DNA of 32,000 nt from Candidatus Harpocratesius repetitus (GTDB lineage Archaea > Asgardarchaeota > Lokiarchaeia > Sigyniarchaeales > Promethearchaeaceae). Position numbers and translations under genes: made by a program. Of this stretch, positions 14,962 through 21,714 are shown piece after piece. Location: positions 4,170,001 to 4,202,000 of the forward strand of contig JAIZWK010000001.1 of assembly GCA_021498095.1 (NCBI GenBank), in the 5' to 3' direction. Within the stretch, counting starts at the first letter, position 1, and the number at the start of each line of letters is the position of its first letter. The notes under the pieces are model-generated. The model saw only the letters and a program-made list of their open reading frames with translations, did no database searches and had not been told where the DNA came from.

Positions 14962-15276
14962 TTACTTTTTAGAACTATCTGGCATGCTAGCATGTTTTTT
15001 GCCTTGATTGATACTTTTTATTCTCTGTTGGTTTTTCATTTCTATTATAATTAAGGCAAAAAGATCATGCACAAATTCGGGATTCAAACCATATTCCTGC
15101 GCCAACTTACTGTAATGTTCAAACATTTCTTGCTCTCTTTCTGGTTGGAAAATTGGAAGATGGTCATTTTGTTTAATTTTCACTAATTGCGGAATTAACT
15201 GAAAGCGTTTTTGCAATAAATGAATGATTTGAAGGTCAATTTTGCTTATTTCTGCCCGTATTCTTGTGATTTCCAT
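14962..15276 (-). CDS. aroQ: Chorismate mutase, AroQ class
   Basis: IRAEISKIDLQIIHLLQKRF...KIK....PIFQPEREQEM...IFxxII signature; first gene of the aro operon. Confidence 0.9.
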   Translation of the reverse strand: MEITRIRAEISKIDLQIIHLLQKRFQLIPQLVKIKQNDHLPIFQPEREQEMFEHYSKLAQEYGLNPEFVHDLFALIIIEMKNQQRIKSINQGKKHASMPDSSKK

Positions 15277-15357
15277 GAAAATTCACTTAAAATGATATTG
15301 TAGTGATATTTAGGGAAAATGCTTTTTACACTTAATCATTGCCACCACAATAACTAG

Positions 15358-15386
15358 AAAGTTAATTTTATTAATATATTAACTTT
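15358..15386. promoter_or_regulatory. 9-bp perfect inverted repeat upstream of aroQ (operator or hairpin candidate)
   Basis: AAAGTTAAT-N11-ATTAACTTT. Confidence 0.35.
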
Positions 15387-15417
15387 GCTGGAAATAAGAA
15401 GAGAATTAATAATAGAA

Positions 15418-15465
15418 AAGAAAGATGGCGCCCGATCGGGATTTCCGTTTCCATTGTTATAACAG
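15418..15465 (-). repeat. Duplicated tRNA-Asp 3' end including most of the T-loop intron (distal attachment site)
   Basis: Identical to 19670-19718 except for a 1-bp deletion in the acceptor-stem run (ccc vs cccc on +). Confidence 0.92.
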
Positions 15466-15652
15466 CGAATCAGTAATTATCCACTGAGATTTTTGCAGAA
15501 TGGAGAAAAATTGCGGGTGTAATAGAAAAAAACAAAAAGATTTAATTCATCCCTTGCTTTGAAAATTCATCAGTTTCATCTCAAATTTGGAAAAAATTTC
15601 ATCAAAAGTATAAATTTTAAACAATAATAAAAATACATATTATTTTCATATT

Positions 15653-16885
15653 TTGAAATTAATTGTTGAATTAAAGCAGCGTTATTTGTTGTATCGTAAG
15701 TTGGAGATAGGAGATAATGATTTGCGGACAATGTTTGGATTGTCAATATTTGAAATTAGTACTCTTGACCGTTTAGCACCTTTATATAAAGAAATTGCAC
15801 AATTATTTATAGATGAGACCTTTCGAGATTTGAATGTGCTTGGAAAAACAATAGATTTATTCAAATATTTGCAAATCTCAAGCAGTGGTTATAGATATCC
15901 TCCTCGACGTACTACATTAGATATTCTAATTCGGTTTAAAGCAGCAACTATCGCAGGTTCCAGTAAGCAACTTAAATTAGCAGTTATGTTTGAGTGTTTA
16001 GGATTTGGAAAGTTAGCTTTTGGCGATTTATACGCACCTAAAAAAGATGCATTTGCTCTTCTCATGACTGCACTGGGTTATCCAATAATTTACACACCTT
16101 ACAGTGATGCAAGTTCAATCGGCGGATATTATGAAGATCTCGCGAGTACTCGCTATATTGGTCATATTGCACCTTATTTAAAGCAAAAATTTCAGGTGGA
16201 TGAGTACAGTCGAGCTTTGGCAATTGGATTGCATAATGGTTTGAATTATATGGAAATTTTCGAACGGATGTCCCGTACGGATGCAGCAACTGTTGTCGGT
16301 AGTGATGGACAGTCACATGCTCTACTTGATCAAGATGGAAACCCTTTGGTTGATGAGAACGGAAATCCATTAAATTGGTGGGAGGTTTTCGGATTTGATG
16401 ATCCAGAACAAGCAATAGCGCTTCAAGAGGCGTTTGGTCTGAAGGTGGATAAGGATAACGGGAATTTTGTCGAACCTATTGTGATTCGAAGGGTTGTTAA
16501 TGGGAAAGAGCAGTTTGAGATAAATGATGTTGCGTTTGATCACCGCACAATTTTATATGAAAAAAAAGATTCAAATGGAAAGCTAACAAAAACAATTCCA
16601 ATTTTGCATGATATGCGCCAATGGTGGGCGAATCTGCTCCAATCGGGAATGGCAGAATTCCAGCTGCCGATGATACCTGAATTTGCGCAGGAGTATAACA
16701 GCAAGAGGGCTTGGCTTAAGAAATTTTTTGCGATTGATTTGGGATATGGTGGAAAACCAAATAATATTATTCTCCAGCCATCAATTAATGAACTTCTTGC
16801 TTTATTCTTAAGAAATTCCAAGAAGATTCCTGTAAATCCATTTTATCCAATTGCTCAGTTAGATCCTCCTGAAGATCGGCTGTGA
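15653..16885 (+). CDS. Orphan 410-aa ORF, probably the C-terminal fragment of a larger gene
   Basis: Long open frame with no in-frame ATG near its 5' end (frame opens after TAA at 15611); visibly less AT-rich than neighbouring host genes; oligo-T at 16895-16900. Confidence 0.6.
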   Translation: MKLIVELKQRYLLYRKLEIGDNDLRTMFGLSIFEISTLDRLAPLYKEIAQLFIDETFRDLNVLGKTIDLFKYLQISSSGYRYPPRRTTLDILIRFKAATIAGSSKQLKLAVMFECLGFGKLAFGDLYAPKKDAFALLMTALGYPIIYTPYSDASSIGGYYEDLASTRYIGHIAPYLKQKFQVDEYSRALAIGLHNGLNYMEIFERMSRTDAATVVGSDGQSHALLDQDGNPLVDENGNPLNWWEVFGFDDPEQAIALQEAFGLKVDKDNGNFVEPIVIRRVVNGKEQFEINDVAFDHRTILYEKKDSNGKLTKTIPILHDMRQWWANLLQSGMAEFQLPMIPEFAQEYNSKRAWLKKFFAIDLGYGGKPNNIILQPSINELLALFLRNSKKIPVNPFYPIAQLDPPEDRL

Positions 16886-17102
16886 GTTACTGTGTTTTTT
16901 CAATTTTAAAATTATTTTAATTTTTTCAATTTTTGGAACAATGTGGTAATAATTATGCATAAAATCACAGGAGCGTTAAATTTAAAATGGAAAACTCTAT
17001 CGTTAATGTATATATATGTATACTTATAATAAATTTCATTAATATATTTTTGAAATTGGTTAATAAAGCAATAGAAATTAAATATTATAAGTGAGAAATA
17101 AC

Positions 17103-18719
17103 ATGGTAGATTCAAATGATTCATATGAACAATTAAAAAAAAAATATTCATTTTTCTTTAGTAGACATTATTTACCCCTTCTTGAAGCGCCAAATCCTTA
17201 TCTTGAAGTGGATTATCCATTAGTGGAACAAGAAGAAGAACTATTTCGAGCGGGTTATGAGGCAAGTGGGCGAAAGACAGGGTATCGACAAAATTTAGAG
17301 ATAAAGGGCCCCATAAATAGTTATAGCTTTTTAAATAATTATCCTAAACTTAAACGGATTGAATTATCTGATTCATGTCTTACGAGCTTTGAAGGAATGC
17401 CTATTTTACCTGAGCTGCGTTACTTTCTTATGAATTGGAGTTGTATTCCAAATTTTGAACATTTTCCAGAATTGCCTAAGGTAGAAGTGCTATTAATCCA
17501 TACATTCATGCAATCTTTTGAACATATGCCCGTTTTTCCTCGATTGAAGCGGTTAGCAGTCAGTACAGAGTTAAAAAATTTTCACCATTTCCCATTACAA
17601 CCAGTTTTAGAAAAACTTATCGTAAGTACAAATAAGTTGGTTTCATTTGAAGGTATGCCTGTGCTTCCCCGGTTAAAAATGCTCGATGTGAGTGATAATT
17701 TTCTCACCTCTTTTAAAGAGTTGCCACCCCATCCAAATTTGAAAGAGTTAATAGTAAGTGCGACCATGCCATATATTGATACTAATGAACGTTCCTATCT
17801 TGAAGAGTGTTACCGGCAACGCAACAATCACATTTGTTCTTTTGAAGAATTTCCGATTTTTCCTCGTTTGGAAACAATCTGGGCAGAACGTATCGGCTTG
17901 GAGTCGTTTGCCGGTATGCCAAAGCTTCCTAAAGTCAAACGGTTATATTTGAAGGATAATTCCATTCGTTCTTTTGCAGAACTTCCTTCACTACCTGAAT
18001 TAGAATATATTGATCTGAGTAATAATAAAATTAAAACATTAGATGGGATGCCTCTGCTTCCAAATTTACGAAGTTTAACACTCTGCGGCAACCCGATAAA
18101 AAATGGTGCTGCTCTAAAAATATTAAAAGAAAAAGCACCTCGTCTTAATGACTTGGATTTACGCAATTCTCCGCTTGAGACCCTTGAAGATTTTCCCAAA
18201 CCTCCCCATTTAAATAGTCTTTGGCTTGAACATACTCAGATTAAATCATTGGCTCCGCTTTACGATTTCAAAGGATTAAATTATCTTTTTTTAAAGAATA
18301 CACCACTTCAGACATTAGCAGAGATGCCAATCATCTATAGAACACCAGATCATGGTGAAGTGATTGATATCGATCCGCTTGGAGAAGATTATTCTGTAAT
18401 AGAAGGTTGGAATTTAGATTTACCATGGGATTTTTTAAAAAATATCCCAGATTCTGTTTATCAATGGTATAAAAATAAGCAGTATGACAAATTTACAGCA
18501 TATTATCATGTAAAAACGTCAGAACTTATCGATAAAGCACAGCATGATAAATTAGATCCGCTTTACTATCCGCGAATTGTTCAAGAATCTTCTCCTGAAG
18601 TGCAGCATTTTCTAATTAAAAAACTTGGAAGACAACATTCATTAAGCAAGCTTTTAATTGAGAATTTGGTGAATTTAGAAGTTCCTATAAAGAATGGGGA
18701 TTTTTCAATCAAATTGTAA
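17103..18719 (+). CDS. Leucine-rich repeat protein (about 14 LRRs of ~22 aa) with a helical C-terminal domain
   Basis: Repeats such as LEYIDLSNNKIKTLDGMPLLPN and LKMLDVSDNFLTSFKELPPHPN. ATG at 17103 is preferred over GTG at 17091. Confidence 0.9.
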   Translation: MVDSNDSYEQLKKKYSFFFSRHYLPLLEAPNPYLEVDYPLVEQEEELFRAGYEASGRKTGYRQNLEIKGPINSYSFLNNYPKLKRIELSDSCLTSFEGMPILPELRYFLMNWSCIPNFEHFPELPKVEVLLIHTFMQSFEHMPVFPRLKRLAVSTELKNFHHFPLQPVLEKLIVSTNKLVSFEGMPVLPRLKMLDVSDNFLTSFKELPPHPNLKELIVSATMPYIDTNERSYLEECYRQRNNHICSFEEFPIFPRLETIWAERIGLESFAGMPKLPKVKRLYLKDNSIRSFAELPSLPELEYIDLSNNKIKTLDGMPLLPNLRSLTLCGNPIKNGAALKILKEKAPRLNDLDLRNSPLETLEDFPKPPHLNSLWLEHTQIKSLAPLYDFKGLNYLFLKNTPLQTLAEMPIIYRTPDHGEVIDIDPLGEDYSVIEGWNLDLPWDFLKNIPDSVYQWYKNKQYDKFTAYYHVKTSELIDKAQHDKLDPLYYPRIVQESSPEVQHFLIKKLGRQHSLSKLLIENLVNLEVPIKNGDFSIKL

Positions 18720-18829
18720 ATAAAAGTTCTTTAAAATGCTCATTTTAGCTAAATTATTTTTAAAAAGCATCAGTAGAGCCGAAAATGGCTTTCTAAGGTA
18801 GATAATACCAAATACGCAGATTGCGGTAA

Positions 18830-19546
18830 AAGAAAACCTTAAAATTTCATTCACTCACGAAGGGAATTTATCGTGCTTTGAAAATTCATAACTTTGTAGC
18901 ATGGCGGAAATTTATCCATCCTTCGATTGACAGGATCTATTTTGATAGAGAGTTGTACATCACCAAACTGGTTTCAGAATTAGAAAAAAAGGGGTAAAAA
19001 ATATATTTTTTCGACCAAAAAATTACACAAGTAAAATATAAAATGACTCAATATTTGCATGGACAGAAAGGATTTCTCTCAAAAATTGTTTTTGTTCAGT
19101 CAAATTAGTATTATCTGAAACAGACAAGCACTTTTGTGCGCTTTCTAATTATCGAAAAGAAAAATGAAATGTCTTGGAATATTAGAGACAAATTTCAAAA
19201 ACAACTATTGACAGAATCGGAAGCACTTAAAAAATTAGCAAGTTCTATCACAACATATAATCCGTGGAAATATCAAAAAACTTGGGTAAGGTACTTGATT
19301 CGAGAATACAAAAGACGCTGGAACATCAAAACTGGATTTTCAATGTTAAATTTCATCCATATCTCAAGCAGATCACGCATTTTTTAAGCAAAACTCGTAG
19401 ATATTTATGCAAGAGCAATTTTTTATAATTGGTGACAGTCTTGGAGGGTTTTTAGAATAAAAAAAGTATATCATCATAGAAATTGCACTCTAAATGAATT
19501 TAAATACTATGCTTCAGACCAGATCTGCAAAATTCTAAAAGACTAG
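18830..19546 (+). pseudogene. Degraded DDE transposase, IS4 superfamily (ISH3-like)
   Basis: Hand translation across stops and frameshifts: IDRIYFDRELYITKLVSELEKKG, then KYIFSTKK, YKRRWNIKTGF (Y..RW.IE motif with E->K), and IFYNW*QSWRVF...KILKD*. Confidence 0.7.
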
Positions 19547-19694
19547 AAATGGAAAGTAATAATTTTTAATAACGAATTTAAAGGATGGAATGAAAGTGAA
19601 GATAAATAAAAAATCTTAAAGGTGGAAATAAAGAAACAAAATATATTAAATACTTATTTAATCACAGAGAAGAAAGATGGCGCCCCGATCGGGA

Positions 19695-19722
19695 TTTCCG
19701 TTTCCATTGTTATAACAGAAAG
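19695..19722 (-). other. 28-nt tRNA intron at position 59/60 with canonical BHB motif
   Basis: Central helix TCCG/CGGA, 3-nt bulges AG^C and AA^T, flanking helices GGG/CCC and TTTC/GAAA. Confidence 0.88.
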
Positions 19723-19765
19723 CTCGGACCCGAGTCGAGGGAGTGACAGTCCCCCATGCTGACCG

Positions 19766-19790
19766 TTCTGCCCTTCTTCTCCAAGAAGGC
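19766..19790 (-). other. ~25-nt D-loop tRNA intron (15/16 or 16/17) with relaxed BHB-like motif
   Basis: Hairpin CCTTCTT-GGAG-AAGAAGG inserted between TAG and CGGTCA; the central helix is imperfect, so the splice point is uncertain by 1 nt. Confidence 0.75.
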
Positions 19791-20152
19791 CTACACTATC
19801 GGGGCAAAGTTGTTGTGATTAATTAGATTAACCAACTAAGAAAAGTAAAAGCGAGATGCTATTAAAAATTTTTGGTGGGTAATTTGAACAAAGAAATGTA
19901 AAAATTCTTTAATAATATTAAAAAATGTCAGAATTCAAAAAAAATCTCAAAATTAGGTAAAAAATTGAAGTAAATTTCAACTATTTTTTAAGGTAATAAA
20001 AATATAGTTTTAACATTTTAATATACAAAAATAATAATTGTATAGGAAAATGTGATGCAAAAAGTGAAACCTTATAGTAATAATCTATGATACAAAATAA
20101 ATAAACTTAATATAATAGAATAATAAACATTGTATGTATAGGATTTTGCGGG

Positions 20153-20785
20153 GTGGAATTTTTGAATAATAAATCGTATCAAAATTATGATTTTAAATCT
20201 TTAAAGCAAATTTTTCAAAGAAATTCTTGGTACATGACCCGCAAGAATTTACTTAAAACAGGTCTAAATAGATACGATCTTGAGAAATTGGTGCGAAATG
20301 AAGTAATAGCTAAAGTTACATCTAAGTTGTATAAATGGAAGAATATTAACTTTGGAGAATATGAAGATCTGATTGATATATCTGTTATAGAACCAAGAGG
20401 AGTATTTTGTCTTTATACTGCCATGGATTTTTATAAATTATCAACATTTGTCTCAGATAAATATTACCTGGCAATTCTCAGAACAGATTGGGTCCCAAAA
20501 GGTCTTGAGCAATATCCTGTTATAATAAAAAAGTGGATAAGAAGAACTTTTTCTTTAGGAATAGATCTTCAGAAAGTTGGGAAAAATACAATCAGAATTT
20601 ATAATCTTGAAAAAACGATATGTGATTGTGTCCGGTATCGGAATGAACTTGGCTTAAATACTTTGAAAGAGATTCTTACTTCATATCTTCAAAAAAAATC
20701 GAAAGATTTGCAAAAATTATATCTTTATGCTGAATTACTCGGTATATCTAAAATTCTTAATAATTATTTAGGAATGATTTTATAG
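20153..20785 (+). CDS. abiEi: Type IV toxin-antitoxin antitoxin, AbiEi family
   Basis: N-terminal wHTH; PRGVFCLYTAMDFY.LS; IRIYNLEKTICDCVRYR; KLYLYAELLG. Confidence 0.88.
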   Translation: MEFLNNKSYQNYDFKSLKQIFQRNSWYMTRKNLLKTGLNRYDLEKLVRNEVIAKVTSKLYKWKNINFGEYEDLIDISVIEPRGVFCLYTAMDFYKLSTFVSDKYYLAILRTDWVPKGLEQYPVIIKKWIRRTFSLGIDLQKVGKNTIRIYNLEKTICDCVRYRNELGLNTLKEILTSYLQKKSKDLQKLYLYAELLGISKILNNYLGMIL

Positions 20786-20790
20786 ATTAG

Positions 20791-21714
20791 GTGGTTAAGA
20801 TTACATCCAAAAAAGTTAAAGATTTAGGTGCTTCCATTCTTGCGCGATTAAAGAACCATGCGAAAGAAAATAAAATTCAACCTCGAATGATCTACTTAGC
20901 CTATATTTTTGAAAAATTCCTTTATCGGGTTGCAATTTCAAAATATAGATCAAAATTGGTATTAAAGGGAGGTGTTTTACTATATTGCGAAAATTGGAAT
21001 TTTAGACAAACAACAGATATTGACTTTTTAGGACTTTCACTTTCAAATAAGGTCTCTAATATAATTCAAATAATTCAAGAGATTTGCACAATTCCCTGTA
21101 ATGATCCTCTACAATTTTATGTAGATGATATCTCTATTCAAGAAAATATGATTGATGACAAATATAATGGATTTAAAATTACAATTCCTGTTTCACTTTC
21201 AACCTTAAAGGAAAAACTGAATATTGATATAGGTTTTGGTGATGTTATATATCCAAATCCAAGATCTTTAAATTATCCGATATTGTTCAAAAAAGAGAAT
21301 AAATCAATAATAATACAAGCATATACAATAGAATCATTCGTTGCAGAAAAAATTCATGCTATCTATTACTTAGGTGCCTTTTCATCAAGAATGAAAGATT
21401 TTTATGATTTATATTGTATTGCAGAGTATAAGACATTTGAATTGATGGATTTACTTGAAGCAATAAAATTAACATTTAAAAAAAGAGATACTAAAATACA
21501 AAGTAGAACTTTAGAGAATATTTTAGATGATGATATTTGGAATCAAAGATTTATTCAATATTGTAGAAAAAAACATATTACCATTATCCCATTTGAAGAT
21601 GTATCAGAAAGAATAAAAAAATGGCTTTTACCAATATTTAAATTAATCGAAGAAAATAAGCCAAACACAACTCTAACTTGGGATAACCATTTATTCTTAT
21701 GGAAGGCAAATTGA
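20791..21714 (+). CDS. abiEii: AbiEii-family nucleotidyltransferase toxin
   Basis: LVLKGGVLL, RQTTDIDF, IDIGFGD, AEKIHA, SRMKDFYDL; 5 nt downstream of abiEi. Confidence 0.92.
   Translation: MVKITSKKVKDLGASILARLKNHAKENKIQPRMIYLAYIFEKFLYRVAISKYRSKLVLKGGVLLYCENWNFRQTTDIDFLGLSLSNKVSNIIQIIQEICTIPCNDPLQFYVDDISIQENMIDDKYNGFKITIPVSLSTLKEKLNIDIGFGDVIYPNPRSLNYPILFKKENKSIIIQAYTIESFVAEKIHAIYYLGAFSSRMKDFYDLYCIAEYKTFELMDLLEAIKLTFKKRDTKIQSRTLENILDDDIWNQRFIQYCRKKHITIIPFEDVSERIKKWLLPIFKLIEENKPNTTLTWDNHLFLWKAN

Follow-up and report, generated by a model that had tools for sequence, protein, structure and literature searches.

A block of probably captured DNA next to the single aspartate tRNA gene in a Lokiarchaeia-type Asgard archaeon, bounded by repeats that begin inside a tRNA intron

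How did a non-functional copy of a tRNA tail come to lie 4.25 kb downstream of the intact gene, and what can be read from the fact that the edge of the duplicated sequence falls inside a tRNA intron? The question is raised by a locus of Candidatus Harpocratesius repetitus, a Lokiarchaeia-type Asgard archaeon whose genome (G000 hereafter) consists of one contig with a length of 4,361,485 bp. The window, meaning the whole stretch of 32,000 nucleotides that was analysed, corresponds to genome positions 4170001-4202000, and coordinates below are those of the window unless stated otherwise. An accessory block of 4.2 kb sits here behind the genome's sole aspartate tRNA gene, tRNA-Asp(GUC), and the copy of the tRNA tail closes it on the far side. 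We regard the block as what remains, stranded, of a mobile element that entered tRNA-Asp(GUC) in a Campbell-type event and later lost its integrase, a reading to which we give a probability of roughly 0.7.

The repeat pair was delimited by sequence reading, repeat search and BLAST, and all three confirmed the duplication that a sequence-only reading of the same DNA had reported. Exact identity extends over 35 nt (15431-15465 = 19684-19718, from sequence reading and repeat search). The longer core, 15418-15465 (48 nt) against 19670-19718 (49 nt), has as its sole difference an extra C in the proximal copy (GCGCCC/GCGCCCC), and on BLAST a weaker similarity with 3 mismatches stretches the pair to 15406-15465 and 19658-19718 (93% over 61 columns). 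The proximal copy (19658..19718, minus strand) is the 3' part of the functional tRNA-Asp together with its trailer. The distal one (15406..15465, minus strand) is a displaced 3' fragment of tRNA-Asp that keeps the orientation of the intact tRNA; one G/C pair position is deleted from its acceptor 3' strand, and G73, CCA and about 20 nt of trailer are kept. As the same reading had claimed, the repeat holds trailer (about 10-20 nt), CCA and 3' exon, that is G73, the 3' strands of the acceptor and T stems and T60, followed by nt 5-28 of a T-loop intron (24 of its 28 nt). Its claim that homology stops just beyond a palindrome of the intron also stands, since the repeat ends 1 nt past TGTTATAACA, which is found at 19708-19717 and 15455-15464 and makes up the apex of the inner helix in the intron.

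The two ends of the identity block differ. The 5' edge, which falls within the intron, is sharp, with 35 of 35 positions identical and then only one match in the next 4 nt, and the 3' end is frayed by the 3 mismatches in the trailer. Furthermore, the repeat is present in two copies only in the entire genome. No third copy of the 28-nt intron was found genome-wide with up to 6 substitutions allowed. A genome-wide self-BLAST for low-copy direct pairs (35-150 nt each, 1-80 kb apart) returned 9 pairs, and the present one is the only pair derived from a tRNA; the other 8 are pieces of paralogous genes or promoters. A chance origin of the repeat pair is excluded. Within the inserted block, moreover, nothing but the tRNA tail is duplicated.

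The tRNA-Asp(GUC) gene itself (19678..19805, minus strand) encodes its CCA, is present in a single copy in the genome and carries two non-canonical introns. The unspliced gene is detected neither by ARAGORN, with and without intron mode, nor by Rfam, and ARAGORN calls Asp(gtc) once both inserts are removed manually. The T-loop intron (28 nt, 19695..19722, minus strand) lies at position 59/60. Its predicted structure is an hBHBh' (bulge-helix-bulge, BHB, type) motif, which appears in the minimum free energy fold of the T-arm region alone and of the full precursor alike. In the T-arm fold the T stem is UCGGG/CCCGA, a 4-bp helix UCCG/CGGA separates two bulges of 3 nt (AG|C and AA|U), and the inner helix begins with UUUC/GAAA. 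Predicted cleavage after the second nucleotide of each bulge would excise 19722-19695, 28 nt, between positions 59 and 60 and leave UCCGAGU as T loop. Orthologues in the two same-genus genomes (congeners), G001 and G002, are without exactly these 28 nt, and their T loop, TCCGAGT, is the predicted spliced product. On this sequence evidence the T-loop insert is an archaeal BHB-type tRNA intron at the non-canonical position 59/60. The D-loop intron (25 nt after G15, 19766..19790, minus strand) forms a hairpin CCUUCUU/AAGAAGG and was bounded by comparison with the D loops of G001 and of a further relative, G010.

Two side observations concern the tRNAs of this lineage. The genus-level T loop TCCGAGT (window 19723-19728; also loci L004, L017 and L009) has C55 at the position where nearly all tRNAs carry U (pseudouridine 55); relative G040, with TCCAAAT, likewise has C55, and other relatives have TTCAAAT or TTCGAAT. 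In addition, ARAGORN in intron mode makes only 36 tRNA calls in the 4.36-Mb genome, several of them dubious, and many of its tRNA genes probably carry non-canonical introns that make them invisible to standard finders.

The corresponding site is kept empty in a congener. In G002, EPSP synthase is followed by chorismate mutase and tRNA-Asp and, beyond two unrelated genes, by rubrerythrin, a VIT-family protein and the genes that come next, which is the order of the window, and the flank proteins of the two genomes are 48-59% identical. The G002 tRNA-Asp lies ~190 bp from chorismate mutase without 4.2 kb in between. In the window, by synteny with G002, the chorismate mutase gene (14962..15276, minus strand) is the host flank that, in the relative with the empty site, borders the 3' end of the tRNA, and the displaced tail (15418-15465) lies ~140 nt from the start of this gene, at the position that matches the tRNA 3' end in G002. 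The block between the repeat copies (15466..19657, about 4.2 kb, with no strand assigned) has no counterpart at the syntenic G002 locus. Since the site is empty in G002, the 4.2 kb represents an insertion; the empty-site allele for which a search in relatives had been proposed is thus found, with chorismate mutase adjacent to an intact tRNA-Asp. Moreover, as tRNA-Asp is a single-copy gene, the insertion event had to rebuild it.

The upstream side of the tRNA was also compared. At 20153-21714 the window has an unknown 210-aa gene and an AbiEii nucleotidyltransferase toxin gene (PF08843, 1.4e-37); G002 has a zinc-ribbon protein and a short-chain dehydrogenase/reductase (SDR) in the place of this AbiE pair. 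Hence both sides of tRNA-Asp are variable between the two genomes. No repeats were seen around the block on the AbiE side.

How, then, could the insertion have been made? The geometry of the repeats, with the insert downstream of the intact tRNA, is a classical one and supports their being the attL and attR attachment (att) sites of a tRNA-targeting integrative element. It is the usual mark of integrative elements in archaea. In a Campbell-type entry, attB would be the 3' part of the single tRNA-Asp gene, and attP would be the matching segment of a circular element, running from nt 5 of the host 59/60 intron through 3' exon and CCA to ~20 nt of trailer. Recombination would have rebuilt a working tRNA at 19678-19805 and left a second, non-functional tail beside chorismate mutase, 4.25 kb downstream. 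Since 24 nt of the intron are present in both copies, host gene and element must both have held them before the event, and it is firm that the element's attP contained sequence of this lineage's intron; attP may have been copied from, or have co-evolved with, the intron-bearing tRNA-Asp of the host lineage. The suggestion of the sequence-only reading that an attP could carry a tRNA intron therefore stands as regards the shared 24 nt, but not as a new idea, for it was published in 2012 (Sugahara et al., PMC3293823). We infer site-specific, integrase-type chemistry at the locus. The recombinase gene would have been lost afterwards and the cargo left trapped.

This cargo consists of two genes, both on the plus strand. 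P0001 (15653..16885, 410 aa) is an ORFan without a family match in Pfam, PHROGs or NCBIfam, and has a short D/G/N-rich repeat at residues ~216-241. P0002 (17091..18719, 542 aa) is a leucine-rich-repeat (LRR) protein that resembles internalins (LRR_4 5e-27, LRR_8 3.5e-17). No orthologue of P0002 was found in 40 relatives, nor one of P0001. Between P0002 and the tRNA lies a degraded insertion sequence (IS), a DDE transposase pseudogene (18841..19636, plus strand) that matches residues ~153-426 of a ~438-aa transposase and includes an 83-aa open reading frame (ORF) at 19136-19387. It fills ~800 bp beside the rebuilt tRNA and ends 22-34 nt from the proximal repeat. In elements of the pNOB8 type the integrase has its place here, which makes an IS-linked deletion a plausible route of integrase loss, judged only from the position of the remnant. 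Full copies of the ~438-aa transposase exist elsewhere in the genome, which is IS-rich, and a twin degraded IS at genome positions 3610272-3610968 has 80-84% DNA identity to the remnant in the block. The twins represent the same truncated derivative with the same internal start point, one of them with an extra ~100-bp deletion.

Among the marks by which a tRNA-targeting element is recognised, a tRNA-derived direct repeat with an intact tRNA at one end and an empty-site relative are thus found here; an integrase of the element's own, adjacent to an att site or split by it, is not. Several observations weigh against a stranded integrative element. No integrase, excisionase or replication gene was found among the ORFs of the block (Pfam, PHROGs, NCBIfam), and a six-frame search of the genome detected no integrase pseudogene. 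In the six-frame scan PF00589 gave 1 match, the XerA equivalog, which is the sole tyrosine recombinase of the genome, and the SSV-type integrase PF16795 gave 0 matches; the resolvase domain PF00239 gave 12 small matches genome-wide and 0 in the block. As the block has no integrase and the sole PF00589 protein is XerA, no recombinase can be attributed to the site. The contig collections that were searched yielded neither an attP-bearing nor a related element. The exact 28-mer of the repeat core had 0 matches in viral, genome and metagenome contig collections, and P0001 used as a probe on metagenome and viral contigs recovered no related loci. Furthermore, the block is ordinary in composition, with a GC content of 0.329 against 0.310 (81st percentile) and a tetranucleotide distance at the 23rd percentile; composition was accordingly rejected as a sign of foreign origin, the block not being deviant. 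Finally, the sole empty-site relative, G002, is divergent (flanks 48-59%) and without the T-loop intron. A second empty site was sought in G001, whose tRNA-Asp contig (9 kb) shares no genes with the window; G001 not being syntenic, the empty site rests on one relative.

Could the block have entered without any integrase? A circular DNA, such as a plasmid or an excised piece, that carried the last ~60 nt of the lineage's tRNA-Asp locus might have been taken in through ordinary homologous recombination, or its integration might have followed a double-strand break by a nuclease encoded on the element. The edge of the repeat would then mark the extent of the captured tRNA DNA, or a nuclease cut near the palindrome, for which P0001 would be a weak candidate enzyme, by analogy with HeimM2, the LRR and homing-endonuclease element of Heimdallarchaeum. 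The lack of an integrase in the block and the XerA identity of the genome's only PF00589 protein speak for such an entry, and so does the host-like composition, which is what is expected of DNA circulating within the lineage. It also has a parallel in an 8-kb Asgard element with LRR and homing-endonuclease-like genes beside a tRNA gene (PMC8813620). On the other hand, recombination across 35-60 nt of homology is inefficient, and a cut at the palindrome alone would not duplicate 48-60 nt. The nuclease variant depends further on what P0001 is, to which we turn before weighing it.

The N-terminal region of P0001, which aligns up to residue ~270-330 and is best conserved over residues ~1-190, is a Lokiarchaeial domain that is met again in very large proteins of this genome, G006 and G010, either internally or at the C-terminal end. 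Besides P0001, it was noted at loci L026 (6947-13975, minus strand), L027 (5084-7963, plus strand), L025 (7010-8059, plus strand) and L037, and it occupies the C-terminal part of giant proteins of 2342, 959 and 1823 aa. This domain, of up to ~270-330 aa with a core of ~190 aa, appears restricted to Lokiarchaeia, and may be a polymorphic-toxin-like end module. A word search of 5.8 billion proteins returned P0001 itself only, and in a HMMER search of 1.8 billion proteins the other matches were confined to the short D/G/N-rich repeat, in giant proteins. The family has invariant residues D90, E114, G117, K131 and Y147, among others, and the ExK triad is not present. A single-sequence structure model reached a predicted local distance difference test score (pLDDT) of 34; an alignment-based model from 8 sequences reached a pLDDT of 61.5 and a predicted template modelling score (pTM) of 0.68, and had no Foldseek match. 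In a wide structural search with this model the best matches, over residues 30-186, were PD-(D/E)xK nucleases (EcoT38I, BstEII, SdaI, Can2, TnsA and Vsr among them) with Z 5-6.3, where the best score by chance is quoted as typically 7-8. A PD-(D/E)xK-like fold is thus a lead only, from a predicted model.

That P0001 might be a hidden recombinase was rejected in view of the absent family and Foldseek matches and structural Z scores of at most 6.3, and the nearest ESM-atlas clusters, phage portal-like with a score of 0.81, do not rise above chance. One P0001 paralogue lies ~350 bp from an ARAGORN 'tRNA-Lys' call, and no flanking repeats were found at any P0001 paralogue locus.

For an entry without integrase, the best structural matches of P0001 and the invariance of D90, E114 and K131 would fit a nuclease. 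Against this, all these matches are weak, their top Z of 6.3 lying below the usual best chance score, Foldseek returned nothing, and the domain is otherwise found in giant proteins, a setting that suits a surface or toxin module better than an enzyme of integration. We consider such an entry unlikely.

A second alternative does without a mobile element, the block being the product of a local rearrangement, for example transposition or translocation of host DNA mediated by an IS, or a tandem duplication around tRNA-Asp that has since decayed. An IS remnant does lie within the block, in an IS-rich genome, the composition of the block is indistinguishable from that of the genome, and the AbiE pair, in the place of the zinc-ribbon and SDR genes of G002, means that the other side of the tRNA differs between the congeners as well. 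However, the target duplications made by DDE transposases are of a few bp, not 48-60 nt, and the duplication seen here takes in the tRNA tail and nothing else of the block. No paralogous source of the DNA was found, in a DNA search that covered the tail of the block only, and the closest paralogues of the block's proteins within the genome are only ~25% identical. The precise rebuilding of a functional tRNA is the hallmark of att recombination, and a local rearrangement appears quite improbable to us.

A mis-assembly of the distal fragment or of its join at a short repeat, conceivable for a single contig that is metagenome-derived or from an enrichment, is very improbable because the copies differ by an indel and 3 trailer mismatches, their four flanks are all different, 99% of the sampled 31-mers of 15000-20000 occur in an independent contig set from a run of the probable source sample, and the distal copy is placed just where the tRNA end lies in G002.

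The stranded integrative element therefore remains the reading that we prefer, and the edge of its repeats inside the intron can be considered in turn. As a rule, the crossover in attachment sites of tRNA genes reportedly lies where the identity block has its 5' end (Williams 2002, in NAR, Nucleic Acids Research). The sharp 5' edge and the frayed 3' end fit this rule, so that the crossover would fall near the sharp edge, at or near the intron hairpin. One decayed example cannot establish a crossover there, however, and a block's edge should not be equated with the crossover point. The claim of the sequence-only reading that the recombinase recognised the intron itself was not supported, and the same applies to recognition of the palindrome. 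A bolder version would be a lineage of Asgard elements adapted to intron-bearing tRNAs, with a recombinase or a P0001-type nuclease acting at the apex TGTTATAACA of the dyad-symmetric intron hairpin; we consider it a long shot. If it were true, the intron would be a crossover site and not a shield, and attP would track the fast-evolving intron sequence of the host lineage.

In order to place the locus among known systems, it was compared with published archaeal cases. Archaeal tRNA-targeting elements with tyrosine integrases include the pNOB8 type, with an integrase intact beside the tRNA, and the SSV type, with an integrase split by the att site (She et al., as summarised in PMC3293823). With archaeal tRNA-targeting elements the locus shares a direct repeat of ~45-60 nt from a tRNA 3' end, a rebuilt tRNA, a displaced fragment, accessory cargo and an empty-site relative. 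Unlike elements of the pNOB8 and SSV types it has no integrase, neither intact beside the tRNA nor split, and whereas the block usually starts in an uninterrupted gene, at its anticodon loop or T loop, here it starts within a 59/60 intron, in a Lokiarchaeia-type host. Captured segments that are flanked by att sites and lack an integrase are nonetheless an established phenomenon at archaeal tRNA genes (PMC3293823). On the preferred reading the locus is captured DNA at a tRNA att site, a known phenomenon, and its unusual feature is that the identity block begins in a non-canonical intron.

The closest published case as regards the intron is the tRNA-Thr(GGU) locus of Caldiarchaeum subterraneum, for which an attP that may carry a tRNA intron was put forward (Sugahara et al. 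2012, PMC3293823). There too, a small insert, of 1.8 kb in that case, lies between a fragment of a tRNA and a tRNA with several introns. The differences are that the Caldiarchaeum locus duplicates a 5' fragment, has a recombinase gene and shows a rebuilt gene that gained an intron which the fragment lacks, whereas here a 3' fragment is duplicated, the recombinase is gone and part of the intron is in both copies, so no gain of an intron can be inferred. Indeed, the model of Sugahara et al. predicts a rebuilt gene with the intron and a displaced fragment without it, and here both copies hold intron nt 5-28. Small elements beside tRNA genes have also been described in Asgard archaea (Wu et al. 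2022, PMC8813620), among them HeimM2 of Ca. Heimdallarchaeum, with LRR and homing-endonuclease-like genes. By description only, HeimM2 resembles the present block in being small, in lying next to a tRNA gene of an Asgard archaeon and in having a gene for an internalin-like LRR protein but no classical integrase; it differs in having a recognisable homing-endonuclease homologue and in sitting between the 16S rRNA gene and tRNA-Arg.

Did the element bring the intron? The tRNA-Asp gene was parsed in 19 relatives, and at least 10 of them, in two families, have an insert of 28-31 nt at this 59/60 site in the T loop, with very different sequences; it is not present in 7 relatives, both congeners included. 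Because at least 10 relatives in two families carry it, the 59/60 intron appears to be old, conserved in position and repeatedly lost or resampled; on these sequences its history is explicable by vertical descent and needs no mobile element. The proposal of the sequence-only reading that integration could install or swap T-loop introns is not borne out here, and the idea that the element brought this one was rejected, given that wide occurrence and the presence of intron sequence in both repeat copies. That integration spreads introns is not a new idea, and this locus lends it no support. Close relatives differ widely in where their tRNA-Asp(GUC) genes carry introns (loci L003-L022): G000 has D-loop and 59/60 introns, G002 the D-loop one only, G001 one at 37/38 only, G010 the 59/60 one only, and G005 none.

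Archaeal tRNA introns have been proposed to protect their genes from integration (Randau and Soll 2008, as reviewed in PMC4090602). Here the intron did not prevent the use of the gene, and the matching segment includes it; a single decayed locus is nevertheless an anecdote about the shield hypothesis and not a test of it. The value of the locus is likewise anecdotal: it offers a single event, with neither an enzyme nor a free element. Within these bounds it provides a clean and checkable case, from an Asgard archaeon, of the capture of DNA at a tRNA gene, the empty site being kept in a congener, and it indicates that the matching segment of such an element can include the sequence of a non-canonical tRNA intron, here the one at 59/60.

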